The notes: generated by a model from the sequence alone, not told the origin. DNA of 64,000 nt from a virus (IMGVR_UViG_3300025314_000006), one strand, 5' to 3'; counted from the stretch's first letter, positions 4,212 to 63,533 are shown. A program made the numbers and translations.

Positions 4212-7200
4212 TTATTTTATTCTTGCTTGATAGAATCCTCCAATATCGTCAGCGAGAGGAGCATTACTTCCACTTGTAGACTCACCCCAATTTCCGACTA
4301 TGTTGAAACTCAGGGTCGCAACACACCACATAGGCTGAACTCGGCCACCAGAGCCATCTATAGACCAAGGTGAGTCATCATATGAAAACGAAATATTATT
4401 TATAATAACATCATAGTTGAACCAATCACCTAATTTTAAATGACTTACAGGTGGATATGTAAAAGAAAATCCTTTGCCAGAAGTATTTCTTGATGGTCTA
4501 GTAAGTTTGGATAAAAATTCCATTCTTGTTAAGAAATCTACTTTATCACCGGAAAAGAAAGCTGGCTGAAACATAAGATCTTTTTTCATTTCTTTTAATC
4601 TTTCTTTGGTTTCCTTAGTTTTTAAAGAAATGTCCCCAGAAGAATTAGTTTCTTCTCCACCTTTAATTAATTCTCTATAAATTTTTCCACCTTCATCTCC
4701 ATATTTACGATTTCCCACATTTGAAGAATTATCTTTTTGTTTAGCTTCTAAATTTGAAATTTCGGAATTCAATTCACTTATTTGAGATTTTAAAGTAGAA
4801 GTGTTTCCAACATCATCAGATGCTATAGCTAATAATTGAGCGTTATATTCAGATATTTGTTTCTTCTTATTTTTTATTTCTACTTCAATATTATCATTTG
4901 CTGTATTTATTCCATTTTCCGATTCAAAATGTTTACTAAAAGTTTCTGAATATGTTGTTGAATCTTCCCAATTAACACCAACATCAACAGTTTGAGAATA
5001 ATCAGTTAAAACAAAAAAGGATATGGAGCCTTCTCTATTTGAATTAGAATAAGTATAAATTGGCTCCGGTCTTCCAAGAAAATCTACCTTATTCCAATTT
5101 GCACTATCGCTATTTGAAAAAGACTTAACATATGGAGGAAAACTCATTGTATGATTAAGAGTAGAATCCCCATTTTGAATAGCGTAATTTTTTATTCTCA
5201 ATTCAAGGGTCCCAGCATCTTTACTTGGTTTATAGGGATTGGCTATTGTATATCTGGCATAAGCTTTTTTAGCATTTGGGTCAGCACTAATTAAAAATTT
5301 TTTAGTTCTTTGATTATAATTTTTAGATAAATCTATTCCTTCTGTTCCGGGAGCATTCTTTATTGTATTTATAATATGAGTAACGCCTCTTTCATGTTTA
5401 TTAAAATCAACAGCAATTGCATCTCCTGGAACTGTGTTTGACATCATAGAAATAGCCGTTCCTATTTCTCCATTTGTTGGTTTTAACAATTGTGTAACAG
5501 GAGATATTCCATCAGAATATTCCCCCGGAGATTGTAATCCTACATATGTTCCACCCTTAGCGCTAACTACTCCTGCTGGAGTTGAATTAGTAGATAATAC
5601 TTTTTCGTTTTTAAGCGTACTGTTAGATAATGATAACAGCTCTTTAAACCCTCCAGCGTTATGTCCATTTAATATACTGTATCCATCTAATAAATCATCA
5701 TATCTATTCCTGAAAACATTTTTCTGTAAATTATAAAGTTGAGCAGCATTGGTTATTTTCGCTAAAGGAATTCCAGAATCTGGTTTTGTTTCAAGCCCAT
5801 AAATTGGTTTTAAATTTTTGGTTGCGTCAAGTATTGTTCCTTTAAATTTCATAAGCTCTCTTATTGGAGCGCTCATAATTTCTAAATTAGATACACCTAC
5901 AAATGTGCTTGTTCCTCCCATCATTAAAGAAGTACCAAGACCATTAGAATTTCCATTTTTTGTTAATAAATTATGTCTAGTAGCATTTGCAATAGTTATT
6001 ATAGTATTTGGTCTATCAACATTTTTAGATAATAGAGAATTTCTTGTACCTACAGAATCAGATTCTAAGCTTAAATATTGAGGAACATTTGCTGATAATA
6101 AATCATTTCTTATACTTAATGAATTCTGATCTAAATCAATATTATTTACGACATTACTCGCCAATAATGCATTTCTTGAAATTAGTGCATCTCCATCTAA
6201 ATCAATAACTACAGGAACGTTTGCAGCAAGAAGAGCTCCTCTCGGAACCGCAGATAAAACATCTAAATCTGTATTTGACGGAACATTACTAGATAATAAT
6301 GTGTCTCTTAGAATTATTGAATTAGCGTCCAAATCAATATTGTTTGGTACATTGCTTGCCAATAATGAATCTCTTGGAATTACTGAATTTGCGTCTAAGT
6401 CAATATTATTTGGAACATTACTTGCTAATAGCGTGTTTCTTGGAGCAGTTGAGTTCGCATCTAAATCGATATTCACTGGAACGTTGTTTGCCAATAATGT
6501 ATTTCTCGGAACAGTTGAGTTTGCATCTAAATCTATATTCGCTGGAACGTTACTTGATAACAAATTTTCTCTTGCAGTTGTTGAGTTAGAATCTAAGTTA
6601 GTATTCGCTGGCACATTACTTGCTAATAATGAATCTCTTGGAACAGTTGAGCTTGCATCTAAATCTATATTCGCTGGAACGTTACTTGATAACAAATTTT
6701 CTCTCGTAGTCGTTGAGTTCGAATCTAAATTAACATTCGCTGTCACATTTGCTGAAAGTAATCCATCTCTTGTAATTGTTGAGTTCGCGTCTAAATTAAC
6801 TTTTGACGGCACATTTGATGATAGTAAACTTTCTCTTGTTACTGTCGACTTTGAATCTAAATTAATATTCGGTGCCACATTTGATGACAATAAACTATCT
6901 CTTGTAGCTGTTGAATTTGCGTCTAAATTAGCACTTATAGGAACATTTGACGACAACAAACTATCCCTTGAGATTGTTGAGTTTGCGTCTAAATCAATTT
7001 TTGATTGTACATTTGATAACAACAAGCTATCCCTTATGGCGGTTGAATTTGCATCTAAGTCAATTTTTTTAGATACATTACTCGATAATAAATTATCTCT
7101 TGTAGAAACTGCAGATAAATCAAGATTTATGTTTTTCTCTATATTTTTAAATTCCTGAGCTTCTCTGAACTGGGATGAATCTTTGTCGATATCAATTTTA

Positions 7201-38844: not shown

Positions 38845-38900
38845 AATATTATTTAACTCCAAAGTTTGGAATTTTGAAAATTTGTTATATATTTACAAGT

Positions 38901-40379
38901 ATGAAAAAAATACGATGTAAAACAACCGGTAAAGAATTTGGAGACTTAGAAAATAAAAGCGGATGTATAGCAGAACATCTTAATAGCTTAAATATAAATG
39001 TTCCAACCTCATTTTTAAGAAGACAGTTTCTAAAAAAAAATGGTCAAATGTGGCATATGCAATTTTTTGACGTTTTTGAAACAGTAGACAAAGAAATTAA
39101 AAAATGTAAATATTGTGATTGGACAACTGTTGATTTAGATAATAAAAGCGGTCAATACACGTTGCATTTAAAAGATAAACACAACAAAGATATTATACAG
39201 TATGTTGAAGAATATCCAGAAGAAAAAAATCTATTTAATACATTTTTTAATAAAAAAGAGCTAAAAGATTTTATAAATTCCTCAGAAGATAACTATATTA
39301 TTTGTAAAGTGTGTAATGAGAAATTAAAAAAAATTACCAATAGTCACTTAAAAACTCATAATCTTTCATTATTTGAATATAAACTCAATTTTTCGACTGA
39401 AACATTAAGTGAATTTGCTAGACAAAATTGTATAAAACAATATGAAGAAAATTTAAAATTTATTAAAAGTAATTTTACATCATCTGGACATAAAGAAATT
39501 AATGATTTTTTATTTGAATTAGGATTAAATTATGAAGTGAATAATAAAAGTTTATTAAAAGGAATTGAATTAGATATTTTAATTCCTGACAAAAAAATAG
39601 CCATCGAATATAATGGTTTACTATATCATTCAGAGATATATGGTAAAAAATCTCGTAGCTATCATTTAAATAAAACTAAACAAACTAATGAAAATGGTTA
39701 TTTATTAATACATATTTTTGAAGATGATTGGATTCAAAAAAAAGATATAGTAAAATCCAAACTTAGACACTTACTTGGTTTAAATAAAAACATCATCATT
39801 CACGCAAGAAAATGTATTATTAAAGAAATAAACCCTACTTTAAAAAATGAATTTTTAAACAAAAATCACATTCAAGGAGAAGATATGTCAAACATTCATT
39901 TAGGAGCTTATAATAACGATGATTTAGTTGCTGTTATGACTTTTGATTCAAATAGACACATGTCTATAAAAAATATAGTTGAAGGAGAGTGTGAATTAAA
40001 AAGATTTGCGACAAAAATAGATTGCAGAATTCCAGGTATTGCTAGTAAGTTACTGAAATATTTTATTAAAAATAATAATCCTAAAAAAATAATAAGCTTT
40101 GCAGATAAAACCACAACAATAAACGATGAAAATTTATATACTAAACTTGGATTTATTTGTAAGGAAATAATCGGGCCGGATTATAAATATTTCAATCCAA
40201 AAGTATCGAGGAATAGAAGACTACACAAATTCGGTTTCGGAAAAAACTCTATAAAGAAAAAATTTCCAGAAGTTTATAATCCGGATAAAACCGAATGGGA
40301 AATGATGCAAGAACTTGGTTATGATAGAATCTGGGACTGTGGCAAATTTCGGTATGAAATGGAAATAAAAAATGATTAA
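38901..40379 (+). CDS. Putative homing endonuclease (Zn fingers, DUF559-like nuclease, Hef-like C-terminus)
   Basis: ELDILIPDKKIAIEYNGLLYHS; ARKCIIKEI; KNHIQG; ELKRFA; RIWDCG. Start placed at the ATG at 38901. Confidence 0.8.
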   Translation: MKKIRCKTTGKEFGDLENKSGCIAEHLNSLNINVPTSFLRRQFLKKNGQMWHMQFFDVFETVDKEIKKCKYCDWTTVDLDNKSGQYTLHLKDKHNKDIIQYVEEYPEEKNLFNTFFNKKELKDFINSSEDNYIICKVCNEKLKKITNSHLKTHNLSLFEYKLNFSTETLSEFARQNCIKQYEENLKFIKSNFTSSGHKEINDFLFELGLNYEVNNKSLLKGIELDILIPDKKIAIEYNGLLYHSEIYGKKSRSYHLNKTKQTNENGYLLIHIFEDDWIQKKDIVKSKLRHLLGLNKNIIIHARKCIIKEINPTLKNEFLNKNHIQGEDMSNIHLGAYNNDDLVAVMTFDSNRHMSIKNIVEGECELKRFATKIDCRIPGIASKLLKYFIKNNNPKKIISFADKTTTINDENLYTKLGFICKEIIGPDYKYFNPKVSRNRRLHKFGFGKNSIKKKFPEVYNPDKTEWEMMQELGYDRIWDCGKFRYEMEIKND

Positions 40380-43417: not shown

Positions 43418-44011
43418 TTAAAATTCACACTCTTCAACTTTTTTAATTCTTTTTTCTGGATATTTTTCAAACAATACTTTATATTTTGAAACTTTATTTT
43501 TTCCTTCAAATTCAAGACTTATTTGAATCATTTCGGAAAGAGTAACAGCTTGAGTTCCTCCTTTAAAAATTAAATTCAATTTATTAACTGACATTTTTAA
43601 ATTTCTTGCCAATTCTCTTTTTGTAAGCTTTTCATTTTTAATGTGTTCAAGAAGGCACCTTCCAATAAACCAGCAAATTGAATTCCGGCCTTTTTTAGGC
43701 GCTTTTAAAAAAACCATTTGGCCTTCTTTCCCTATTGTTACTCTTGTATTTATCAAATGAAAAAAACTTCCTACCTCACTTGCAATAAGACATCCACTTT
43801 TTTTATAAAAACTAAAACTTTTAAATGGTAATTTTTTCCCATCTTTTTCAAATTCTTCAATAGGAACAATTAAAATATTTAATCCAACTTCTGATTTTCC
43901 TGCCTCTATTTCTGTACAAACAAAACAAACAACGTAGTTTAAAGGAGATAATCCTTTCTCTTTCATTAATTCTTTTGTTCTTTTAAAAAAAATATTAGTG
44001 GCGTTTATCAT
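43418..44011 (-). CDS. Hypothetical protein with C-terminal Cro/XRE-like HTH
   Basis: LTKRELARNLKMSVNKLNLIFKG. Confidence 0.6.
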   Translation of the reverse strand: MINATNIFFKRTKELMKEKGLSPLNYVVCFVCTEIEAGKSEVGLNILIVPIEEFEKDGKKLPFKSFSFYKKSGCLIASEVGSFFHLINTRVTIGKEGQMVFLKAPKKGRNSICWFIGRCLLEHIKNEKLTKRELARNLKMSVNKLNLIFKGGTQAVTLSEMIQISLEFEGKNKVSKYKVLFEKYPEKRIKKVEECEF

Positions 44012-44537
44012 TTTTTGTTTTTGCTTTATTTTGTCTTATCTTTTTTTGCATAGGAGCATTTGTTTGTCCTATATGTTCGCGAAGATAAAGTTCTTTTTTA
44101 AAAACTAATTCTTCATCTGTATTACGTAAGTATCTTTTTCTTTTCCTGAATTCCGTTAACAATCTTACAGTATCCATTTTCTTTAATCTTTCTGGAACTT
44201 CAAGGTTCTCCCAAGCAATAAAATCTTCTATTCTTTTATCTTCAAAAACTTCTCCCCACTTTTTTTCAAATTTAACTTTATTTTTTCCGCAAACAACGCC
44301 TATTTTAGGAAAACCATTTTCTGTTTTTATATATTCAATTTCTCCTTTTCTAAAAGTGTTATCAGGTTTTTTAACTCTAACAATCATTCCAACATAAAGA
44401 ATGTTCTCTCCCCAACCATATCTTGAAAGCCCTCCTTTTTCATCAAGATAGAATTCTTCATCCTTATACTTTTTTTTAAGTATTTCAAGCTCTCTTTCTT
44501 TTCTTAGTCTGTCTAATTTTTCTTCTGATGTTTCCAT
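43995..44537 (-). CDS. Hypothetical protein
   Basis: 180-aa ORF; a variant bipartite promoter motif lies at 44544..44573. Confidence 0.7.
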   Translation of the reverse strand: METSEEKLDRLRKERELEILKKKYKDEEFYLDEKGGLSRYGWGENILYVGMIVRVKKPDNTFRKGEIEYIKTENGFPKIGVVCGKNKVKFEKKWGEVFEDKRIEDFIAWENLEVPERLKKMDTVRLLTEFRKRKRYLRNTDEELVFKKELYLREHIGQTNAPMQKKIRQNKAKTKNDKRH

Positions 44538-44576
44538 GGTGTTTTAAACGAAATAAACTGAAAGTTGTTGCTTAAT

Positions 44577-45488
44577 TTATAAATTTGTTGAAATTTTATT
44601 CCATTTTCTTTCTAAACAAGGTAGGTTAAATTTTGAGATAATGTCTTTTAATAATAATATTTTATTTCTTCTATATAAATTAATAGTTATTATATTTGTT
44701 TTTTTTACACCTTTTATAAAAAAATCATTATATAATTTTGTTTTTTTTAGAATTTTAATGTAAAATTTTTTCCAATTTTTGTGAGAAACTATAGAAATTC
44801 TATTAGAATTTTTTGAACCATTTTTAGATATACATCCATCTCCATCTATTATTCCTATTATTAAACATAATAATAATTCAGTATTATATTTAGAAATGCG
44901 TTTGAAATTTATAGGATTATAAGTTTTTCTATCTTTTAAATTATATTTTCCTTGTATTTCAGGAATTGATATTCTGTTTGAAAATGATATTCTATATGAT
45001 TGTGATTTATTTCTAAATTTTATTTCTTTATTAAAATTAATAAATTTAGCAAATTTTTGCAAGTGATTTAAATCTTTTTTCGCTAAACATAATTCGAATT
45101 TATTTTTATTTAATGAACCATCAGCTATTATAAATCCAAGCCAATAAAAACTTAAAAATGTTTCTTCTAATAATTTAGATAGATTATTTTCACTGTTATT
45201 ATATATATCATTTAACTTGTGTTCTTTTTTAAATTTACCGCCATTAATCGAACATTTTTTACATAAACTTTTATTATTAATAGCTACTCTTTTATCAGAA
45301 AATCGTGAATAAACTATAATATTATCACAATTAGGACAATTTCTATTTAAATTTTTAAATAAATCAATATCATGTTTTCTTTTTGAACATGTTCTACAAG
45401 CTCTATTTGCCTTAAAAATTTAGTTGCAATTTTTTTCAGATGAATGAATTAATTCTTTATGACATTGTGGACAATTTCTTTTATACAT
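44577..45488 (-). pseudogene. LAGLIDADG homing endonuclease with an in-frame TAA at codon 23
   Basis: ATG at 45488; CPQC, stop at 45420..45422, then CRTC/CPNC/CKKC, YWLGFIIADGS and LIIGIIDGDGCI, all in one frame continuous with the track ORF 44577..45062. Confidence 0.8.
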
Positions 45489-45558
45489 AATTTAATTTAT
45501 AATAAATATGTATAAATTTCCAAAAGCTGGTAAACCGTTATTTAATGTTTTGTTTTTA

Positions 45559-45891
45559 TTAAATCAGACATTTTATTTTTTCAATTAGCACTATTCTTGT
45601 TTCACCTAAAAAACTTACGAACTCCCAGTGTGTATCATGTTTACTGCGTTTCCAAGCTGTTTTTCTGTGTTTAAGCCCACTCGTTAAAACATCACTATAA
45701 ATTCCTTCTCCTTCAAGAAGATTTAAAAGTTGATAAGTTTTCATGCACGCATGAAATCCTTCTAAGATACAAAACCTTTCAATTTCAGTATGGTAACTTT
45801 CAATAGATTCTAAGTCTTCCTGAAACCAAATTTCAGCATGTTTGCCAGCTATTCTTATTTTGTGAATGGTTTTTATTACGTGTTCAGACAT
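45559..45891 (-). CDS. Hypothetical protein
   Basis: Track ORF; start moved to MSEHVIK. Confidence 0.6.
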   Translation of the reverse strand: MSEHVIKTIHKIRIAGKHAEIWFQEDLESIESYHTEIERFCILEGFHACMKTYQLLNLLEGEGIYSDVLTSGLKHRKTAWKRSKHDTHWEFVSFLGETRIVLIEKIKCLI

Positions 45892-46198
45892 TATTTGCTT
45901 TTTCAATATCATATTTTAAAAAATTTTCAAAAAAATCTTCAATACCACAACAACTATAATATTTATTTTGTAATCCCTTTTTATTAACTCCCCATCTTCC
46001 AGTAGTATAAAAATATTGATACTTTTTATTTCCTATATAAATAAAAATCATATGAGCACTTTCTACAACGAGAAATTTTATATTTTTATCATTTAAAAAT
46101 TTTTTAACATTTTCAATAGTTTCTTCTGTAAATCTTTTAAACTTTGCTTCTCCTTTAGAACTTACGTGAGAAAATTCCCATTTTTTTTTATTTTCCAT
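45884..46198 (-). CDS. Hypothetical protein
   Basis: 104-aa ORF coupled to the RNA ligase gene. Confidence 0.65.
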   Translation of the reverse strand: MENKKKWEFSHVSSKGEAKFKRFTEETIENVKKFLNDKNIKFLVVESAHMIFIYIGNKKYQYFYTTGRWGVNKKGLQNKYYSCCGIEDFFENFLKYDIEKANNV

Positions 46199-46998
46199 TA
46201 TTTTGTTTTATAATTGTTTTCATAACCATACCATTTATATTTTTCACTATTAATCAAAGTGGCTGGCTTCCAGGTTTTAGTCCAATGCTCATCTGTTTTA
46301 ACGTGTTTTTCCCTAACAAGTTTGAATATGTTATTAAATTCATTTGATTGTGTTTTAATAATACCGTCATTTGTTTTAAATGATTCTACGTTTCTTATAA
46401 CAAATCCCTCACAAGCCGGTTTATCATTTTCTGGGTCATAACCTCCAAGCATGCCATGAGTGTCAGTATATTCTTCCCAATTCATACCAAGAAATGATTT
46501 TAACCATTCTCTTAAAGAGTCATCTTCTGATTTTTTATCTGATATAAATTCTGATAACGGTTTCTTAATTTCTATTACCGGAACCGTAGGAAAATCCAAC
46601 ATGCCGGCATAAAACTTAACTTCTTCCCAAGAGAGCCATACACCATTTTCTCTTACGGCAAACATATAAAAAAAAGATTCAAGTTTTTTATATCCTATAG
46701 AATGTATTCCATACATATTCTCTCCAAATATTTCAAGACCTTTTAAATCATTTTTTATAAGCTCCCATCTATCCCACATAGGTTTATCCCATAGATGTGC
46801 ACTTGGTGCCGTATGCGACCTTGCAAATACTCCCTCTTTTTTAAAACAATCATTCTGTCCATCTAATTTTTCAGAAGCAATTAATTTCATTTTAGAAATT
46901 GGCTCTAAGTATCCTTCTGACAATATCCGGTCATCCGAAGTTGTTCCTTTCGAAATTGGAAAATGTAAAGTTCTTGAGTATTTTGTTGATTCTTCCAT
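46198..46998 (-). CDS. RNA ligase family nucleotidyltransferase
   Basis: YSRTLHFP; EKLDGQN (motif I KxDG); FGENMY; EGFVIR; KLVRE. Confidence 0.8.
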   Translation of the reverse strand: MEESTKYSRTLHFPISKGTTSDDRILSEGYLEPISKMKLIASEKLDGQNDCFKKEGVFARSHTAPSAHLWDKPMWDRWELIKNDLKGLEIFGENMYGIHSIGYKKLESFFYMFAVRENGVWLSWEEVKFYAGMLDFPTVPVIEIKKPLSEFISDKKSEDDSLREWLKSFLGMNWEEYTDTHGMLGGYDPENDKPACEGFVIRNVESFKTNDGIIKTQSNEFNNIFKLVREKHVKTDEHWTKTWKPATLINSEKYKWYGYENNYKTK

Positions 46999-47000
46999 TG

Positions 47001-47288
47001 TTATTTCCAGCTAACCATTAATTCGTTACAAATATGACATACATCTAAACATTCATCGTTTATGTTTAAAACATATGGAATTAAAATGTTTGTTGTCATT
47101 TTACCACAAAAATTACATTTTTTATCAAATTCAAGAGCTGTGCTATATTCTCTTTCATAACCAAAACGTAAAGCCAATTTAATATGAAAAGGTATTTTTT
47201 CAACCAAAATTTCTCTTGTTAATTTTCTATATAAAATTTCATTTAAATCAAATACTGGCTTATATGTAAATTTATTAAATTTTTCCAT
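47001..47288 (-). CDS. Hypothetical Zn-binding protein
   Basis: CNFC...CHIC; start placed at MEKFNK; TATCTTTG box at 47295..47302. Confidence 0.55.
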   Translation of the reverse strand: MEKFNKFTYKPVFDLNEILYRKLTREILVEKIPFHIKLALRFGYEREYSTALEFDKKCNFCGKMTTNILIPYVLNINDECLDVCHICNELMVSWK

Positions 47289-47351
47289 TATACACAAAGA
47301 TAACTATTTTATATTAAACGGATGAGTAACTAAATTGTTTTTAAAAAAATG

Positions 47352-47422
47352 TTGCTCCAAATAGACTCGAACTATTATCTCGCACCTTCAAAGGGTGGCA
47401 TCCTGCATTAGACGACAGAGCA
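47352..47422 (-). tRNA. tRNA-Gln(TTG)
   Basis: Acceptor TGCTCTG/TGGAGCA; anticodon loop CTTTGAA; T loop TTCGAGT. Confidence 0.8.
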
Positions 47423-47427
47423 ATATG

Positions 47428-47499
47428 TTTTCACTCAGAGATTTGAACTCCAATTACAACAGTCAAAATGTTGTGTCCTGCCAGTTAGACGAAGTGAAA
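47428..47499 (-). tRNA. tRNA-Gln(TTG)
   Basis: Acceptor TTTCACT/AGTGAAA; anticodon arm CAACA-TTTTGAC-TGTTG; T loop TTCAAAT. Confidence 0.8.
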
Positions 47500-47502
47500 A
47501 TA

Positions 47503-47545
47503 TAAAACAAAAAACCCGAGACATTTTTAAGTGTCCCGGGTTTTT
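47503..47545 (-). terminator. Attenuator terminator upstream of the tRNA-Gln pair
   Basis: AAAAACCCGGGACA-CTTAAAAA-TGTCTCGGGTTTTTT followed by GTTTT. Confidence 0.85.
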
Positions 47546-47569
47546 CGCGTAAGTATTAAATTTTTCTCT

Positions 47570-47641
47570 TTACGACATAGCAATTCCAGAACTCTTACTC
47601 AGAGTTTGTTGTTGTTGTTGCTGTACGAATATTGTTTTCAT
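47570..47641 (-). promoter_or_regulatory. Leader peptide MKTIFVQQQQQQTLSKSSGIAMS (six consecutive Gln codons)
   Basis: ATG at 47641; CAG CAA CAA CAA CAA CAA; TAA at 47570; terminator begins about 25 nt downstream. Confidence 0.8.
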
Positions 47642-47695
47642 TTTTCTTTTAAATATTAACTAATTTTTATAAACTCGTTGTTTTTAATTGACTTG

Positions 47696-47767
47696 TAACC
47701 CCGACGGTAGTCGAAACCGCATTTTGAATTCGAAAAATTCACGTCCTAACCATTAGACGACGGGGCT
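47696..47767 (-). tRNA. tRNA-Glu(TTC)
   Basis: Acceptor AGCCCCG/CGGGGTT; anticodon arm TGAAT-TTTTCGA-ATTCA. Confidence 0.85.
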
Positions 47768-47856
47768 ATATATATCTTAAACCTATCCAAATTACGTGCA
47801 CTTAATTCAGAAAAAAATTTTATAAATTCTTTCAGTTATAAAATATTCTTTCGGCT

Positions 47857-47939
47857 TGGTGCCCCTGGCGGAAGTCGAATCCGCAAAAACCAAGTTTCTA
47901 AAACTTGTAGCTGTGCCAGTTTGCATATGTCACAGGGGC
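47857..47939 (-). tRNA. tRNA-Leu(TAG), short variable arm, encoded CCA
   Basis: Acceptor GCCCCTG/CAGGGGC then ACCA; anticodon arm CAAGT-TTTAGAA-ACTTG; enlarged D region. Confidence 0.75.
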
Positions 47940-47944
47940 ATTTA

Positions 47945-48112
47945 TTACATTTTTTGCAATTGCGATTGCAAATCTGCAATTTTTCTTTGATAATCTGGAA
48001 GATTTATTTCTTTAGTTGATGACGTTTTTTTAGTCAACTCTAAAGTCATTTCATCTTGTAAGAATTTAAGTCTTTCCTGCAGTCTTTGTTTTTTCTTTTC
48101 TAATTTTCCCAT
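47945..48112 (-). CDS. Small coiled-coil protein inside the tRNA cluster
   Basis: MGKLEKKKQRLQERL...; start moved to the ATG at 48112 because the track start overlaps a tRNA. Confidence 0.6.
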   Translation of the reverse strand: MGKLEKKKQRLQERLKFLQDEMTLELTKKTSSTKEINLPDYQRKIADLQSQLQKM

Positions 48113-48135
48113 TTTATTGTTTATTATATTTATTG

Positions 48136-48210
48136 TAGTCAGAGAGGGGATTGAACCCTCGACCTTTTGTGTATAAGACAACTGCTACTTGACCGCTGAG
48201 CTACCTGACT
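48136..48210 (-). tRNA. tRNA-Ile(TAT)
   Basis: Acceptor AGTCAGG/TCTGACT; anticodon arm TTGT-CTTATAC-ACAA; T arm GAGGG-TTCAATC-CCCTC. Confidence 0.8.
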
Positions 48211-48215
48211 ATTTG

Positions 48216-48295
48216 TACCGGAAAAAAGATTTGAACTTTCACGCATTTCAGCGACAGATTTTGAATCTGCTGTGTCTACATTCCACCATTCCGGC
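48216..48295 (-). tRNA. tRNA-Leu(CAA)
   Basis: Acceptor GCCGGAA/TTCCGGT; anticodon arm GCAGA-TTCAAAA-TCTGT; long variable arm. Confidence 0.85.
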
Positions 48296-48317
48296 ATTAT
48301 TTAAAAGAACTATTCTG

Positions 48318-48399
48318 TGATCGGGAGAGGATTCGAACCTCCAATTGGCTTTCGCCACAGTTTAGAAAACTGCTTCAATATCCATTCTGGCACCCAATC
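48318..48399 (-). tRNA. tRNA-Arg(TCT) with a long variable arm
   Basis: Acceptor GATTGGG/CCCGATC; anticodon arm GCAGT-TTTCTAA-ACTGT; variable arm GGC-GAAA-GCC. Confidence 0.75.
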
Positions 48400-48416
48400 A
48401 TTTTATTTTACAACAG

Positions 48417-48499
48417 TGGTCGAGACAAGATTCGAACTTGCAATTGACTTTCGTCACAGTTTAGGAAACTGTTTCAATATCCATTTCTGACACCCAACC
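48417..48499 (-). tRNA. tRNA-Arg(CCT) with a long variable arm
   Basis: Acceptor GGTTGGG/CTCGACC; anticodon arm ACAGT-TTCCTAA-ACTGT; variable arm GAC-GAAA-GTC. Confidence 0.75.
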
Positions 48500-48508
48500 A
48501 TTATATAG

Positions 48509-48589
48509 TACCCCTGACAGGGGTCGAACCTGCAAGCTATTTGCGTTTGGGCTTAAACCAAATGAGTTTTCCAATTTCTCCACAGAGGC
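48509..48589 (-). tRNA. tRNA-Leu(TAA)
   Basis: Acceptor GCCTCTG/CAGGGGT; anticodon arm TTTGG-TTTAAGC-CCAAA; long variable arm. Confidence 0.85.
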
Positions 48590-48610
48590 ATTTTTTTCAA
48601 AGAACTACAT

Positions 48611-48649
48611 AAAAACAAAAAACCCCAACTTTTCAAGCCGGGGTTTTTT
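48611..48649 (-). terminator. Attenuator terminator upstream of the first tRNA
   Basis: AAAAAACCCCGGCT-TGAAA-AGTTGGGGTTTTTT followed by GTTTTT. Confidence 0.85.
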
Positions 48650-48669
48650 GAACATTTATATTTTTTACT

Positions 48670-48765
48670 TCATAAACGCACGTTATCCGGCCATACTGAT
48701 TTTTCCTCTATCAGTTGTTCTAAAGATAATTGTCTTAGTGAGTTGTATGTTGTGATGTTTTTCAT
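48670..48765 (-). promoter_or_regulatory. Leader peptide MKNITTYNSLRQLSLEQLIEEKSVWPDNVRL
   Basis: ATG at 48765, TGA at 48670; codons 10-21 are CTA AGA CAA TTA TCT TTA GAA CAA CTG ATA GAG GAA. Confidence 0.7.
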
Positions 48766-48806
48766 TTTTACTCTATTAAATAGTATGTTTTTTTATTAAT
48801 ACGATA

Positions 48807-48838
48807 CAAATGTATAAAAAGTTTTAACTAAAAGCAAA
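48807..48838 (-). promoter_or_regulatory. Bacteroidota-type sigma70 promoter for the tRNA operon
   Basis: TTTG-N20-TACATTTG matches the -33 TTTG / -7 TAnnTTTG consensus. Confidence 0.8.
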
Positions 48839-48887
48839 TTTATTTTCATTTATTTTTTAATATTTATGGAAAAGCCAATATTATATA

Positions 48888-49679
48888 ATGAATTCACAGG
48901 AAAAAAATATAAGAAATTTTGTTAAAAATCTTCTTAAAGAAAATTATCAAGAGATAGATGAAGCGAACAAAGGAAAACAGTTTAACTCATATTTTGAACT
49001 TGTATTTAAAAATATAAAACCAAATATTCCAGAAAATAAATTTAGCGATATAGAGATTTTACAAAAAGCTAAAGAATTAATAAATAATAAATTAACAAAA
49101 GTTTTTTTAAAAGATTTTGAATATACTGATTTTATTATTATGAAATTGGGAAAATTTGTCTTAAACGATAAAGGAGTTAGAAGTGTTTTAACTTTCAGTA
49201 AAGAAAGAGATATAGATAAAGGCTATTCCTATATGTATCTTTATATTTATCATAACACAATTGAGCTTATAAGATTTGGAAGTTCATTTTTCGAAGATAA
49301 TAATGCATTATTTAAAGAAGCAAAAGAATTCATTAAAAACAGAGATATAAAACTTGTCACAAAAACAGAAGTCGGTAAATTAGAAATTAAAAATGAATTT
49401 GAAAAAGACAATATTATAGATGTAACTGATTATAGCAAAATCCAGAAACAAGCACCCATAGAAAGACATGGTGTATTATATGATAAATCTAAAAATTATA
49501 AGGTTGGAGATAATTTCTTACATAAAAACTTAGGAGTCGGTAAAGTAGTTAAGACTAAAAGAGTTACAGCAGACGTTCCCACTATTGATGTGAGTGTACA
49601 ATTTAAAGGCGGAGAACAAAAAAGGTTTAGGATGGAAAAACCAATGATGGGTCAAATTCAAAGTCAGCAGCTGTCGTAG
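48888..49679 (+). CDS. Hypothetical protein with a C-terminal SH3/Tudor-like domain
   Basis: N-terminal IRNFVKNLLKE; C-terminal YKVGDNFLHKNLGVGKVV...VQFKGGEQKRF. Confidence 0.65.
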   Translation: MNSQEKNIRNFVKNLLKENYQEIDEANKGKQFNSYFELVFKNIKPNIPENKFSDIEILQKAKELINNKLTKVFLKDFEYTDFIIMKLGKFVLNDKGVRSVLTFSKERDIDKGYSYMYLYIYHNTIELIRFGSSFFEDNNALFKEAKEFIKNRDIKLVTKTEVGKLEIKNEFEKDNIIDVTDYSKIQKQAPIERHGVLYDKSKNYKVGDNFLHKNLGVGKVVKTKRVTADVPTIDVSVQFKGGEQKRFRMEKPMMGQIQSQQLS

Positions 49680-49959
49680 TAATAAAAATACAAACGGTAT
49701 CTAAATTTTTAAAAGTTTTACCATCTCGTAACTTTTCATCAGGTATTTGAAAGTTAACAATTACTTTTTTATTTGAAAATTTATTACATATTTCAGAAAG
49801 CTTTTCAAGGTTTACAGTATTAAGATTATTCGTTTTTATATATAATTGAATATCTTCGTCATTCGGATTTTTAACATCAACATCAATAATATCAACAGCA
49901 GATATTACTTCTGTTAATACGTTTTCCTTGATTTCTGATGTGATGTTTTTACTTTTCAT
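49627..49959 (-). CDS. Hypothetical protein
   Basis: 110-aa ORF; a variant bipartite promoter motif lies at 49966..49995. Confidence 0.6.
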   Translation of the reverse strand: MKSKNITSEIKENVLTEVISAVDIIDVDVKNPNDEDIQLYIKTNNLNTVNLEKLSEICNKFSNKKVIVNFQIPDEKLRDGKTFKNLDTVCIFITTTAADFEFDPSLVFPS

Positions 49960-49990
49960 ACTGTTTTAAACGAGGAATCATCAAAAAAGT

Positions 49991-50812
49991 TTAAAATTTT
50001 CGTTCTTTTTCCATTCTTCTTAAAGATTGTAAAGGAGTTTCTCCAGGCAATATATCATAACCACACCCTATTGTTCCACCTTTCCAAGAACCTGTTCTTT
50101 CTCCTACTTCTCCAGTGACTTTATCTGAATTTAGTGTTTTGCAATTTCGTTTTTCTAAGATAACAAATCTATCCAGTGGTCCGGCATAACTAAATTCAAT
50201 ACTAATTGTTTTTCTTTTTTTATTTGGAAAGACAGACCACTTTAACCATTTCCAACGCCATTCTCTTTCTTCTACTTTTAATTCAGCCATTCTATGTTGA
50301 ATTTCGCCATTTTTTAAAACATAAGTATAAGGATATGATTCTTTCCAGATAACATTTTTCCATTCGTCATGATAAAAATCTTTATAATTTCCTTTAGTTT
50401 CATGTGCCCAAGTATTATCTTTTCTTAAAACGCTGGTACGAACCCAATCCCAACTCCATGGCATGTAGAAGCAATGTTTTTTTCTTTTCCAACACCACCA
50501 AAAAGAATTTAACTTCCATTTTCCTTCTCCATACCAATAATATCCATATTCAGGATATTCTGAATTATTAATTCCTGAATGAATTGGAAAATCCAAATAT
50601 ACTGAGCCGTATCCAAGAGCTAAAAAAGGTATCCATATTAAAGATAAAAATGAAAAACCGGTGAAAAAAATTCCAATTAAAGGGATTAAGAGAGAAGGGG
50701 TAAAATTCATATGTGCTCTATCACTAAAATAAGATGCTGGACTAATTCTAAAACTTGTTTTTTCAAAACCTGTGTAAATATTAATCCAATCGTTTCTATA
50801 TATATTTTTCAT
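49991..50812 (-). CDS. Trp-rich hypothetical membrane protein
   Basis: 273 aa with a TM segment at about aa 40-65. Confidence 0.7.
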   Translation of the reverse strand: MKNIYRNDWINIYTGFEKTSFRISPASYFSDRAHMNFTPSLLIPLIGIFFTGFSFLSLIWIPFLALGYGSVYLDFPIHSGINNSEYPEYGYYWYGEGKWKLNSFWWCWKRKKHCFYMPWSWDWVRTSVLRKDNTWAHETKGNYKDFYHDEWKNVIWKESYPYTYVLKNGEIQHRMAELKVEEREWRWKWLKWSVFPNKKRKTISIEFSYAGPLDRFVILEKRNCKTLNSDKVTGEVGERTGSWKGGTIGCGYDILPGETPLQSLRRMEKERKF

Positions 50813-51215
50813 TTTTTACAATTTCTATTAGTTTTCTTAAACAAGCAAGTTCTGCTTCTTCATAAGAATTATAATGAATTGAATTGCCTTTCATTTCATA
50901 TTTTTCTATAACTGTTATTTCATATTTCCAAGTTTTAACATCTTCTCTGTCATGTAAAAATATTTGGGATAACATATTATATTTTTCTCTAAACCATCTA
51001 AATGCTTGTTGGTAAAGTGGAGATGTAACCCATTTATCGCTATAACCCATATTTATTGTAGTTGAAAAATGAGTATCTTCATCACCATCATTTGGATATC
51101 CTCTATAAGGTGTTAAACTTTTATCTCCAGCATAATAATTAGCGAAACACGGCTCATTAAAACCCAAATTTCTCAAAGCTAATGCTTCATCATATAATAC
51201 GAATTCTTTTTTCAT
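50796..51215 (-). CDS. Hypothetical phage protein
   Basis: KEFVLYDEALALRNLGFNEPC...PLYQQAFRWFREK...SYEEAE in a co-directional run. Confidence 0.7.
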   Translation of the reverse strand: MKKEFVLYDEALALRNLGFNEPCFANYYAGDKSLTPYRGYPNDGDEDTHFSTTINMGYSDKWVTSPLYQQAFRWFREKYNMLSQIFLHDREDVKTWKYEITVIEKYEMKGNSIHYNSYEEAELACLRKLIEIVKNEKYI

Positions 51216-51958
51216 TTTTGAATTGTTGTAAGAGTTAAATGATTATCTTCCAAAACACATTCAGCTACCATCCCATCAAGTCCATTTCTATCTTTTAATC
51301 GTGTAATTGAAAATATATTTTCTCTTTTTTTTATTGAAAAATAAATATCACTTGCATATACTATTGAAGAGTTTATTGGCATTGTAGTATCATCAACTGA
51401 TGCTCTATGTTGATTAGAGATAATAACATGAGTATTAAAATTTAATGCTAAACTTCGTAATGTTTCCGCAATTTCTCGTTGCCTAACATATTTATTCTCT
51501 TCTGTTTTTCTTATGTAAGATAATCTTGCTTTTAAGTTATATTTTTCAAAAATAACAACTCTGGTATTTTCATCTTTAAATTTCGTATATGAAAAAGAAT
51601 TGTTATTTAAATCAAACATTGGTCCGTCAATAATTATGACGCAACTACCAGTTAGAAATTCTAAATGATGAGCAATTTTTTGATTGAAAGATTGTATAGT
51701 ATCTTCATAAAAAAAATCAAGAATAATTAACTTTCCTAATGTTTTTTCTAATTCATGTGAAACTAAATCAGTGTTTCTAAAACGACGTGATGATTCACTA
51801 AATAAAAGAACATTAACACCAGACTTTATATAATTAAATGCCATCGTAGTCATTACTAAGGATTTTCCCTGTCCTGCAGTTGAACCAACACCTATAAGTT
51901 GAGGGTATATAATATTTTTAGATTCGTCAACACGAACTATATCAGAAAATGGATTCAT
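51212..51958 (-). CDS. RecA/DnaB-like P-loop ATPase (short, C-terminal-domain only)
   Basis: GSTAGQGKS Walker A; IIIDG; VIISNQ; KDRNG. Confidence 0.65.
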   Translation of the reverse strand: MNPFSDIVRVDESKNIIYPQLIGVGSTAGQGKSLVMTTMAFNYIKSGVNVLLFSESSRRFRNTDLVSHELEKTLGKLIILDFFYEDTIQSFNQKIAHHLEFLTGSCVIIIDGPMFDLNNNSFSYTKFKDENTRVVIFEKYNLKARLSYIRKTEENKYVRQREIAETLRSLALNFNTHVIISNQHRASVDDTTMPINSSIVYASDIYFSIKKRENIFSITRLKDRNGLDGMVAECVLEDNHLTLTTIQK

Positions 51959-52758
51959 TATTTAGATTTAGAAAAATATTTCTTACTATATTCGGTAGTA
52001 ATTTCTTCTTTCATACCGGCTGAGCGTAAATCTTCGTATATTTTATCAGCAATATGTTCACAACCATCAACATCTGAAGTTGTGTCTGTTAAAAGGGTTA
52101 TTTTTTTAACACAGTCAGGAAAATCCTCAAGAATTTGTTTTAAAGAAACAGCAACACAATGTGATTTTGCTTGTCCAGCAACTAAAACATTATCGTTTTT
52201 ATCAAATAATTCATGAATAAGAGCAGTATTGTAAATTCCATCAGTTTCATTTTGAAAGATTCCAAAATGTTCTGTATTACTTTCCATCCCTTTTAGATGA
52301 GAACAAAAGGATTTTCCAGTTATATCCATCCATTTTCTTAGTGCTGAGTATAATGGAGGGAATATATTAGAACCATAGGTTCCAGAAATGCAATGATAAG
52401 GCCATATTGTATGAGTGAAATTATTTTTTGTTTTTAAAACTTCAAGATATGTTAATGCATTGTGAGAATCTTTTGGATTAGCAGTTTTCCAAATACCTTT
52501 TTGTACATCTTCTATTGTAATATTTGTAAACGGCTCCGGATTTTTTCCTTCTTGATTTTCCCAATACATTGAATGAAAAATACTATCAAGCAAATGCATG
52601 TCTAAAGAAATATGTATTGTTTCTATTTCATTTGCATTTTCAATAATAAATTCAGAAAGTCTATGCATGTCAGAATCAGCTCCTTTTACATAAAGAGAGG
52701 CTCCTGGTAAACAAAAATCTGTTTGTGGATCAACGATGAGAAGTGATACTTTTTTCAT
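51958..52758 (-). CDS. pncA: Nicotinamidase/isochorismatase-family hydrolase
   Basis: LLIVDPQTDF, SLDMH...HSMYW, WPYHC, AGQAKSHCV. Confidence 0.8.
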   Translation of the reverse strand: MKKVSLLIVDPQTDFCLPGASLYVKGADSDMHRLSEFIIENANEIETIHISLDMHLLDSIFHSMYWENQEGKNPEPFTNITIEDVQKGIWKTANPKDSHNALTYLEVLKTKNNFTHTIWPYHCISGTYGSNIFPPLYSALRKWMDITGKSFCSHLKGMESNTEHFGIFQNETDGIYNTALIHELFDKNDNVLVAGQAKSHCVAVSLKQILEDFPDCVKKITLLTDTTSDVDGCEHIADKIYEDLRSAGMKEEITTEYSKKYFSKSK

Positions 52759-61336: not shown

Positions 61337-61684
61337 ATGCCAAGAAATAAAATATATTTAATTTATTGTAAAACAAATAATTTGTATAAAATAGGAGTTT
61401 CTCTTAATAAAGACAAGAGATTAAAACAACTTCAAACCGGCAATCCTTACGAAATTTCAATAATAACTACTTATGACAGTAAATACCCTTATAAGGTAGA
61501 GAAGGTTCTTCATAACGTATTTATTTCCAGAAAAACTCCTGATAATTTTCAATATGATTTTGAATTATTAAAAGGAGAATGGTTTAATCTTTCTCCAAAA
61601 GACGTTTTAGAATTTATTAATTCTTGTAAAAGAATAGAAGAAACAATAGACAATCTTAAAGTTGCTGGTAATCCGTTTATTTAA
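61337..61684 (+). CDS. GIY-YIG family protein (T5orf172/MUG113-like)
   Basis: IYLI...YKIGVS...KRLKQLQTGNP...EKVLH...GEWF. Confidence 0.8.
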   Translation: MPRNKIYLIYCKTNNLYKIGVSLNKDKRLKQLQTGNPYEISIITTYDSKYPYKVEKVLHNVFISRKTPDNFQYDFELLKGEWFNLSPKDVLEFINSCKRIEETIDNLKVAGNPFI

Positions 61685-63533
61685 TTTCGTTTGTCAACTC
61701 AAATTTCAACGTTCCACAATCCCAAATTCTATCAAATCCATTTTCTTGAGCTAAATCCCATTCCGTTTTTGAGGGGTCTCCATTGAATTCTTTTAGAAGT
61801 GTTTGTTTATTGTAAGTAAATCTGTGAAATCGATTTAAGTAATCTTTCGTATTTAAATAAAAATAACTTGGTTTACTTTGTCCTAAAAATTTAAAACCAT
61901 TTTTAGAATATACGGTATTTTCTGAATTTATGCCGGACCATCTGCAGTCAGCATATGAAATTATTGATGTGAAATTATTATTTTTTTTGAAGTGACTTAA
62001 TAATTTTTCAAATCCACCTACGACATTTGTATTTATAAGCGAACAAAATCTATTTAATTCAAATTCCCCTTCTTTTGATTCTTTAAAACCGGTTACAATT
62101 CTTTTTTTAGAAAAAGTCATAATTGAAACTAATTCAGAATTAAAATATAAGCCATATCGAATTGAGTCAACCGAAGTCCCTTGTATATGATTTCTATTTA
62201 AAAATTCATTTTTATCTTTATTTGACACTTCTTTTATTTCGCATTTTCTTGCATAAATCTTATTGTTTGTCTTGTTTATTAAATTTAATATTCTGCTGTG
62301 TACTATTTCTTTTCTATCTCTAATTTCATCATCAAAAATATGAATTAACTTAATTCCTTCTCTTTCACATAGCCTTGTTTTGTGCAAATGATATATTTTA
62401 TCTCTTTCACCCGAGATTTCTGAATGATAGTAATTTCCATTAATTTCTAAAGCAAGGTTGAATTTTGGAATAAAAAAATCTAATTCTAATGGAGAAATTA
62501 TTCTTTTTGTGTTTTGTATGTATTCAATATTAAATTCATCTAATAAGTTTTTAATGTCCATTTCTGGTTTTGAATATTTTATTGGATTACACACTCTACA
62601 AATTGGGACATTTCTATTAAAAATTGTCAGAAAAACATTTTCACACTTATTACATTTTACTTCATAATTTATGTGTGAATCCCATGTTTTTCCAGAAGAA
62701 ATTGTTGTATAACTATTGAAATCAAAACTTAAGTTTCCTTTTTTTAATATTTCTCCAATAGTTTTTATAGATTTTTCTCTTTGTTCATTTTTGAATTCAC
62801 TAGATTCAAAAAAGTAATTATATCCATACTTTTCCTGCATTGTTTTAAGCATTTTTTCGCGAACTTCAGCATTGTTTATTGCATGTTCTGCTCCATATTT
62901 TTTTAAATTTGTTTCTTTCATTTTATCTAAAAACTCTTCTAATTGAAGATGATGTTCCACTCCATATTTTTCAAGAATTGTTTCTTTAGCTTTATCTCTA
63001 TTGTTATAGTTTTCATCACCATATTTTTCTAATTTAATTTCTTTGGATTTTATTGAAAAATTTTCTAATTGTAAAACATTTTCAACTCCATATCTTTCAA
63101 TGCAGGTTTCTTTAGCCTGTTCTCTGTTTGTGTAGTTTTCATCTCCGTATCTTTCTTTTTTTGTTTGTTTTACCTTTTCTGCAAATCCTTCTATTTGAGA
63201 CGGATGGTCAACTCCATACTTTTCCTGTATTGCATCTCTCGTTTTTTGCATTCGCTCATCTTTGTGTTTTTCTTTGTATATTTTTAAACACTCTGGAGAA
63301 CAATTTAATTTTGATTTATGTTTTCCGGTATTAAATATATTACCACATGTAGCACATTCTTTTTCTCTGGAACCAAATTTTTCAGCATATGTTTCTTTAA
63401 ATTTTTTTACTTTCTCATCACTGCTTTGTTTTCTTAATTCTTTATAACAATCTTTTGAACAAGTTAAAACATGATTATGTTTACCTGGATCAAAATCATT
63501 TTGACAAATTGCACATTTTTTTATTTTTCCCAT
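61677..63533 (-). CDS. Putative homing endonuclease (Zn fingers, KYGV repeats, DUF559-like nuclease, Hef-like C-terminus)
   Basis: ELDFFIPKFNLALEINGNYYHS; YARKCEIKEV; RNHIQG; ELNRFCS; RIWDCG. Confidence 0.8.
   Translation of the reverse strand: MGKIKKCAICQNDFDPGKHNHVLTCSKDCYKELRKQSSDEKVKKFKETYAEKFGSREKECATCGNIFNTGKHKSKLNCSPECLKIYKEKHKDERMQKTRDAIQEKYGVDHPSQIEGFAEKVKQTKKERYGDENYTNREQAKETCIERYGVENVLQLENFSIKSKEIKLEKYGDENYNNRDKAKETILEKYGVEHHLQLEEFLDKMKETNLKKYGAEHAINNAEVREKMLKTMQEKYGYNYFFESSEFKNEQREKSIKTIGEILKKGNLSFDFNSYTTISSGKTWDSHINYEVKCNKCENVFLTIFNRNVPICRVCNPIKYSKPEMDIKNLLDEFNIEYIQNTKRIISPLELDFFIPKFNLALEINGNYYHSEISGERDKIYHLHKTRLCEREGIKLIHIFDDEIRDRKEIVHSRILNLINKTNNKIYARKCEIKEVSNKDKNEFLNRNHIQGTSVDSIRYGLYFNSELVSIMTFSKKRIVTGFKESKEGEFELNRFCSLINTNVVGGFEKLLSHFKKNNNFTSIISYADCRWSGINSENTVYSKNGFKFLGQSKPSYFYLNTKDYLNRFHRFTYNKQTLLKEFNGDPSKTEWDLAQENGFDRIWDCGTLKFELTNEIK

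Follow-up and report, generated by a model that had tools for sequence, protein, structure and literature searches.

A ribosome-mediated, multivalent transcription attenuator probably heads the tRNA operon of a large tailed phage. The operon was found in a stretch of 64,000 nucleotides of viral DNA, which as a whole is called the window. The evidence comes from the anatomy of the operon's upstream region, from the enrichment of a short leader ORF in codons that the tRNAs of the operon can read, from conservation in the closest relative, from a correspondence between leaders and tRNA arrays in four phage lineages, and from a complementarity between leader and terminator that keeps a constant position. 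Translation of the leader, stalling of the ribosome and regulated termination are the steps that would connect these parts.

The tRNA operon and its surroundings

The window is a 29% G+C part of the phage genome, and among its genes are those for a DNA polymerase, a tail sheath and a major head protein. Its DNA is present in soil, sediment and groundwater metagenomes, in 20 sequencing runs that are all of DNA and none of RNA; the 4 of these 20 runs that were compared with the window held identical fragments only and no informative variants. A blastn search of the region against GenBank phages gave trivial tRNA-level matches only, and no relatives of the divergent 263-aa neighbour protein were found in IMG/VR. 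Two large HNH/homing-endonuclease genes lie elsewhere in the window, at 38874-40379 (+) and 61677-63533 (-), one of them directly after the major head protein gene.

The operon and its leaders occupy the minus strand from 48838 down to 47351 (Table 1). ARAGORN called the tRNA genes Leu-TAA, Arg-CCT, Arg-TCT, Leu-CAA, Ile-TAT, Glu-TTC and two copies of Gln-TTG. Embedded among them is an ORF for a Lys- and Gln-rich protein of 55 amino acids that belongs to no Pfam family. Relatives of this protein occur in 13 metagenome loci, and they are located within or adjoining a tRNA array at every locus where tRNA genes were found. A gene for a 98-aa protein and an RNA ligase gene follow 3' of the tRNA-Gln pair. 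The ligase gene is next to the tRNA operon in the closest relative, G001, as well, and it may be a sign of tRNA repair. On the other side a 273-aa protein (window 49991-50812, minus strand) matches the Pfam family Acb3, a CBASS inhibitor, with E = 2.4e-38; G001 has a homologue at the same relative place (L014 3233-4057).

Table 1. Features of the tRNA operon and its leader units in the window.
Feature	Position	Strand	Basis or remark
Promoter-like motif TTTG-N20-TACATTTG (putative)	48807..48838	-	Position and recurrence in related units
Leader ORF, ATG, 31 codons and TGA	48670..48765	-	Translation predicted
Sensor codons 10-21, LRQLSLEQLIEE	48703..48738	-	
Small hairpin ACUGAU/AUCAGU over codons 18-23	48695..48715	-	Folding
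Predicted antiterminator 5' strand GGCCGG, codons 25-27	48687..48692	-	Folding
Intrinsic terminator with T tract	48608..48650	-	Hairpin 48650..48616, -20.9 kcal/mol
tRNA-Leu(TAA), first tRNA	48508..48589	-	ARAGORN
tRNA with anticodon CCT (Arg by anticodon), 84 nt, long variable arm	48416..48499	-	
tRNA with anticodon TCT (reads AGA), 83 nt, long variable arm	48317..48399	-	
tRNA-Leu(CAA)	48215..48295	-	
tRNA-Ile(TAT)	48135..48210	-	
Conserved 55-aa ORF embedded in the tRNA operon	47945..48112	-	
tRNA-like element, UAG anticodon loop, encoded CCA, below threshold	47857..47939	-	
tRNA-Glu(TTC)	47695..47767	-	
Inner leader ORF, 23 codons, 6 consecutive Gln codons	47570..47641	-	
Second intrinsic terminator	47507..47548	-	
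Two tRNA-Gln(TTG) genes	47351..47499	-	
RNA ligase gene	46198-46998	-	PHROG 'RNA ligase', 1.9e-30

Some of the tRNAs have an unusual form. They are of class II shape (83-88 nt), with a long variable arm that forms a mini-hairpin, and they carry anticodons of class I amino acids, namely Arg, Glu, Lys, Asn, His, Trp, Thr, Gly and Cys; often they stand beside a copy of normal length. Apart from the two in the window (Table 1), such tRNAs were seen at L014 6621-6706, L052 3021-3106, L054 2986-3072, L058 3081-3166 and at five places in L064 (2794-2881, 3004-3090, 4330-4415, 10162-10247 and 11718-11803). The converse case is found in L057, where the Leu tRNAs are only 74-75 nt long.

An earlier reading of this DNA, made from the sequence alone, had placed a promoter, a 31-aa ORF, a terminator and the first tRNA one behind the other, and each was recovered at its place, the promoter as a putative motif that recurs before four other units. 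The motif ends 41 nt upstream of the leader ATG. Promoters of Bacteroidota have the elements -33 TTTG and -7 TAnnTTTG with a spacing of about 19-21 nt; the motif of the window matches them exactly and may be of this type. The same strict motif precedes all three leaders of the contig L057 (L057-1, L057-2 and L057-3) as well as the G001-C unit. In the whole window it occurs 4 times versus 3.45 times expected; since it is not enriched, the promoter call rests on position and recurrence. A scan with the sigma-70 consensus did not have 48807..48838 among its listed promoters. At L057 1927-1964 and 6338-6376 the -7 box ends 4-7 nt before the leader ATG; given this short distance, two of the L057 leaders may be translated from leaderless or nearly leaderless mRNA.

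Sensor codons of the leader

Codons 10-21 of the leader are exactly those that the sequence-only reading had spelled out. It had also claimed that eleven of these twelve codons can be read by tRNAs of the cluster, and this part stands only if the UAG tRNA-like element is counted. The strict count is 9 of 12, because a Leu-TAG tRNA is accepted by neither ARAGORN nor Infernal. A relaxed ARAGORN run made no call at 47939..47857, and a focused Infernal scan with the Rfam tRNA model reached 17.7 bits, as compared to the gathering cut-off of 29. The candidate was consequently rejected as a tRNA gene. The element has a cloverleaf-like fold with an oversized D region, and it encodes a CCA end, which the other tRNAs of the operon do not.

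The codon usage in 41 long ORFs of the window (14,972 codons) served as background for these counts. Readable codons account for 22.8% of the background codons, or 23.5% if the UAG element is counted. Finding 9 of 12 within a 30-codon ORF has P = 1.8e-3 under random draw, and 42 of 13,742 segments from real genes do as well; for 11 of 12 the corresponding values are P = 1.7e-5 and 0 of 13,742. The chance calculation proposed in the sequence-only reading thus puts both counts above background (P of about 2e-3 and 2e-5). Rare codons in the leader include CTA (0.5%), CTG (0.1%), ATC, TAC, CCG and CGT.

The leader of the window is nevertheless the least clean unit of the series described below. 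TCT is a sensor codon without a matching tRNA, two other sensor codons need the sub-threshold UAG element, and Arg-CCT and Leu-CAA of the array have no codon in the leader. When Gln is removed from its own array, the leader scores 7/10, which is no better than its score versus the array of L057-2. The sensor amino acids L, R, Q, E and I are also typical helix formers. The exact pattern AGACAATTAnnnTTAGAACAA, which corresponds to RQLxLEQ, has 36 matches in IMG/VR, with G001 as the sole homologue. The string alone is not special, because it is in frame in 35 IMG/VR contigs besides that of G001; those that were read are mostly ordinary protein genes. A search with a degenerate back-translation of LRQLxLEQLIE returned G001 and one unrelated contig without tRNAs, and nothing else.

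Conservation in the closest relative

G001 is a complete phage of 518,809 bp with terminal repeats, which was reached through its RNA ligase (77% protein identity). Its homologous leader is a 33-codon ORF (L014 5828-5929), and the terminator behind it (L014 5953-5984) has the same CCCCGGCU arm as that of the window. The terminator is followed by a Thr(CGT) tRNA at 6000-6071 (found by Infernal only, 56 bits) and then by Leu(TAA). The codons kept in the G001 leader are CTA AGA CAA TTA nnn TTA GAA CAA CTn ATA GA, and the peptide core common to both leaders is LRQLxLEQLIE. The N-termini of the two leaders are alike, while the C-terminal third is unrelated as a peptide. At conserved residues 9 of 10 codons are identical versus a baseline of 61% in the ligase gene, a difference that is not significant (P of about 0.05).

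Two differences between the leaders are suggestive, albeit from a comparison of two sequences only. The CTG codon of the window corresponds to CTT in G001, the array of which contains a Leu(AAG) tRNA that is missing from the array of the window. Likewise, there is an ACG codon in the G001 leader, and the Thr(CGT) tRNA comes directly after its terminator. Both differences follow what the attenuator hypothesis predicts.

G001 also encodes a class I aminoacyl-tRNA synthetase of 450 amino acids (Pfam tRNA-synt_1, 1.6e-51). The gene is preceded by a unit of its own (L014 4130-4290), which consists of a leader with five Val codons (GTG/GTC), a strand AGCCGGA that is complementary to an arm of the terminator, and the terminator, located directly before the synthetase ATG. 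With the same parts in front of a synthetase gene, the tRNA units gain credibility as attenuators. Within the tRNA array of G001 there is, in addition, a 163-aa ORF with HNH-like motifs (L014 6931-7422), as judged from its translation only.

Leaders mirror the tRNA arrays behind them

Related loci were anchored on the 55-aa array protein, and the rest of G001 and a distant contig, G002, were added; the ligase of G002 is 38% identical. In this material 14 units of ORF plus terminator were collected, or 15 with the unit of G002, which was left out of the statistics. Small ORFs upstream of a Phe tRNA in L052 were rejected as leader candidates; they lie inside an ordinary (HNH-like) gene.

The contig L057 has three leaders, which divide 27 tRNAs into blocks of 8, 13 and 6. 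The central run of the L057-1 leader is composed only of H, T, Q, W, F, C and P, with an Arg codon shortly before the run, and the tRNAs behind it are Pro, Thr, Cys, Phe, Trp, Gln, His and Arg(ACG). The L057-2 leader names N, M, I, V, D, R, A, G, E and K and is followed by Lys, Lys, Val, Arg(TCT), Asn, Met, Gly, Gly, Glu, Asp, Met, Ile and Ala tRNAs. The third leader names Y, S and L, and behind it are three Leu, two Ser and one Tyr tRNA. The agreement extends to the level of codons. For Arg, the L057-1 leader uses CGA and the L057-2 leader AGA; the two Gly tRNAs have their counterparts in GGA and GGC, and the three Leu tRNAs in CTA, TTA and CTC.

Further units in G001 belong to a Phe/Ser/Asn/His/Thr group, to five Lys tRNAs and to a block of 19 tRNAs, the leader of which names G, M, V, W, Y, P, I, D, A, T and R. 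L054 and L055 contribute one Tyr-block unit and one Lys unit. The leader of G002 names Asp, Ala, Tyr, Leu, Gly, Cys and Thr.

The agreement was quantified by scoring 9 non-homologous leaders with 9 arrays; each pair was given the score of its best-matching stretch of 10 codons, with strict rules for wobble. The true pairings sum to 68, versus 34.4 +/- 6.1 in permuted pairings, and 0 of 200,000 permutations reached 68. The match is specific for the reading frame: 155 of 390 leader triplets (40%) match the array in frame versus 17% in each of the other frames. Leader residues mirror their own tRNA block in four phage lineages. Co-variation of leader codons with tRNA content in related phages, which had been suggested as a check of the initial reading, is hence positive in G001, in L057, in L054/L055 and in G002.

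Terminator and predicted antiterminator

The distance from the end of the terminator to the first tRNA is 26 nt in the window and 8 nt in L057. These gaps leave no room for another promoter, so the tRNAs would be made only by read-through of the terminator.

The sequence-only reading had proposed that GGCCGG can pair with CCGGCT in the terminator, and this pairing could be confirmed. The strand GGCCGG (48692..48687) pairs with CCGGCT (48641..48636), which is part of the terminator 5' arm, and GGCCGG:CCGGCU is the minimum-free-energy pairing once the 3' arm of the terminator is omitted from the fold. The strand is located 16-23 nt upstream of the end of the stop codon. Its duplex with the 5' arm has -11.9 kcal/mol in the window (shuffle P = 0.02). 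In G001 the strand AGCUGGG pairs with CCCGGCU; the 5' arm is conserved between the two phages, while the partner strand differs in its letters and in the amino acids it encodes.

The same geometry is found in most of the units. In 9-10 of 13 the strongest partner of the 5' arm is located 11-30 nt upstream of the end of the stop codon, and the energies of the antiterminator duplexes range from -9.5 to -22.4 kcal/mol across units. A simple search for an antiterminator gave nothing convincing in 3 of the 13 units, two of which are Lys units. The best upstream duplex has a median of -10.45 kcal/mol for the 14 terminators of leader units versus -4.8 kcal/mol for 22 other terminators of the same DNA (Mann-Whitney P = 2e-4).

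A small hairpin (48715..48695) ends 2 nt before GGCCGG and leaves this strand outside. A hairpin at the equivalent place in G001 is built from different letters (ACAACUU/AAGUUGU). The hairpin of the window is a possible pause hairpin. Folding of the window unit revealed no hairpin of the trp 1:2 type that would sequester the antiterminator strand. In the absence of such a hairpin the default of an untranslated RNA would be read-through, and we therefore describe the unit as a three-segment variant of a leader-peptide attenuator. An Rfam scan of 44000..52000 with E up to 1 detected neither a T-box nor any other riboswitch.

Inner units in series

The sequence-only reading had also seen a Gln attenuator nested downstream as a second tier, and the data agree with it. 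The Gln unit of the window has no promoter motif of its own, and its antiterminator partner (-10.7 kcal/mol) is positioned 15-23 nt before the end of the stop codon. The unit is kept in G001, with 7 Gln codons, a terminator and four Gln tRNAs. The Gln leader and terminator of G001 (L014 8444-8575) give a sub-threshold match to the Rfam family Thr_leader (31.3 bits versus 55, E = 0.05).

The strict promoter motif is absent from all five inner Gln/Lys units, and they stand directly behind tRNA genes. In every case the amino acid of the inner unit is present in the outer leader: Q in the window and in G001, and K in the G001-A and Tyr-block leaders. A serial design requires the inner codons in the outer leader, and this explains the two CAA codons in the leader of the window.

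Proposed mechanism

The following sequence of events would account for the architecture. Transcription would start from the motif at 48838..48807, and the leader would be translated as the RNA emerges. After a smooth run to the TGA the footprint of the ribosome would lie over GGCCGG, the terminator hairpin (48650..48616) would form and the RNA polymerase would halt 26 nt before tRNA-Leu. If the ribosome stalled at any of codons 10 to about 19, GGCCGG would be free to pair with CCGGCU of the 5' arm; this antiterminator pairing would block the terminator, and the tRNA genes would be transcribed. The codons for stalling would be those that belong to the Leu, Arg, Ile, Glu and Gln tRNAs encoded downstream. 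Judging from known footprint sizes, a ribosome at the stop codon is expected to cover GGCCGG and a ribosome on codons 10 to about 19 is not. This geometry suggests that the unit would work as an OR gate. RNA from read-through would then reach the second, Gln-only attenuator in front of the two tRNA-Gln genes. The net effect would be a negative feedback, in which the tRNA set is made only while its cognate codons are decoded slowly.

Other explanations of the architecture

The same cis-architecture could serve a different signal, namely the loss of host tRNAs or of their charging instead of feedback from the phage tRNAs. Cleavage by host anticodon nucleases and amino-acid starvation are candidate causes, and the attenuator would be an alarm that switches on replacement tRNAs. 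This idea draws on the RNA ligase (PHROG, 1.9e-30) directly downstream of the array and on the homologue of the CBASS inhibitor Acb3, 1.2 kb upstream. It further draws on the way in which leader-peptide attenuators work: they answer the supply of charged tRNA whatever the cause, as is established for trp/his attenuation. However, a gene neighbourhood is weak evidence, and the causes of stalling are not separable from sequence. We consider this signal possible, albeit the less likely one, and note that it is compatible with the attenuator mechanism proposed here. A sensor of translation or coupling in general, which answers any slowdown or shortage of ribosomes and for which the particular codons matter little, seems improbable to us. 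The geometry needs only a ribosome that reaches the stop in time and the untranslated default appears to be read-through, both of which would suit such a sensor; but it would need neither leaders whose composition tracks their own array across lineages nor a match that occurs in frame only.

If the leader were an ordinary small protein gene with its own terminator, the tRNAs would have to come from leaky read-through or an unrecognized promoter, and AT-rich codon usage together with helical composition would have produced the codon match as a side effect. RQLxLEQ in identical codons is indeed common in unrelated phage proteins, phage tRNAs serve the commonest phage codons anyway, and the leaders share an N-terminus, MK(K)N.TY, that could indicate a function of the peptide. 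Yet the enrichment is significant even against real genes of the same genome, and the mirror rule includes the rare residues W, C and H in other units. In G001, moreover, the C-terminal third is not conserved as a peptide while its complementarity to the terminator is kept, and the gap behind the terminator is too short for a promoter. Together, these results make a plain protein gene very unlikely. Least plausible of all, and hardly to be expected, is a T-box-like element that senses uncharged tRNA directly, with the codons as specifiers that are not translated. It would account for the cognate triplets and for nothing further; neither a T-box nor another riboswitch was detected with Rfam, the triplets share the reading frame of an ATG and a stop codon, and this stop is at a constant distance from the antiterminator strand.

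Discussion

The attenuator proposed for the tRNA operon resembles known leaders with several kinds of regulatory codons. Multivalent leader attenuators control amino-acid operons of enterobacteria, such as ilvGMEDA (Leu/Val/Ile) and thr (Thr/Ile). The phage unit shares with them a short leader with several kinds of regulatory codons and an intrinsic terminator with a competing antiterminator, and a stall on any regulatory codon would likewise give read-through. It differs from them in that it would regulate tRNAs and not biosynthetic enzymes, and in that its leader names more amino acids, five in the window and up to eleven in related units. It also has three RNA segments instead of four, without a 1:2 hairpin, and it is in series with a second attenuator. 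The inner unit, with six Gln codons, a terminator and tRNA-Gln genes, is more similar to the single-amino-acid leaders trpL, hisL, pheL and leuL; however, there is no sequence homology to these leaders, and its target is the tRNA itself.

Leader peptides are also known from genes of the translation apparatus. pheST, which encodes an aminoacyl-tRNA synthetase, has a leader-peptide attenuator. In bacilli a His leader is located upstream of hisS paralogues (PMC2965389). In these systems stalling on cognate codons controls a gene that serves translation, and the Val leader of G001 is of the same type; in the window, by contrast, the controlled genes would be tRNAs. Since the sensed molecule and the product are then of the same kind, the feedback would be direct. 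T-boxes similarly couple the status of a tRNA to read-through by a choice between terminator and antiterminator; unlike the phage unit, they bind uncharged tRNA directly and without translation.

Full-text searches of the literature turned up no account of tRNA genes under the control of a leader peptide, and in a survey of premature terminators tRNA genes are not mentioned (PMC2965389). We read the phage units as a known mechanism with a new target; what is new are the tRNA genes as targets, a sensor of such breadth, the connection in series and the phage setting.

To our knowledge the regulation of tRNA genes in phages is essentially unknown, and the usual view is that they are a constitutive cargo which matches codon usage. 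On balance we lean towards a broader picture for huge phages with Bacteroidota-type promoters, in which the whole tRNA repertoire would be under closed-loop control with codon resolution. Every tRNA block and at least one synthetase gene would be behind a leader that lists the amino acids of the block, and the blocks would be connected in series, with outer leaders that also list the inner codons. The result would be a hierarchical logic circuit that measures the speed of decoding codon by codon and that may also serve to detect host defences by which tRNAs are depleted.

If a leader-peptide attenuator does control tRNA genes, the supply of tRNA is regulated by demand, with the ribosome itself as the sensor and a product, the tRNA, that directly relieves the signal, the stall. 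Many codons would be multiplexed in one short sensor. The combination of a sensor peptide and a switchable terminator would provide compact, programmable parts for synthetic control by tRNA availability. For the phages themselves, the question of why they carry particular tRNAs would become testable, as the leader would spell out the codons that the phage treats as limiting.
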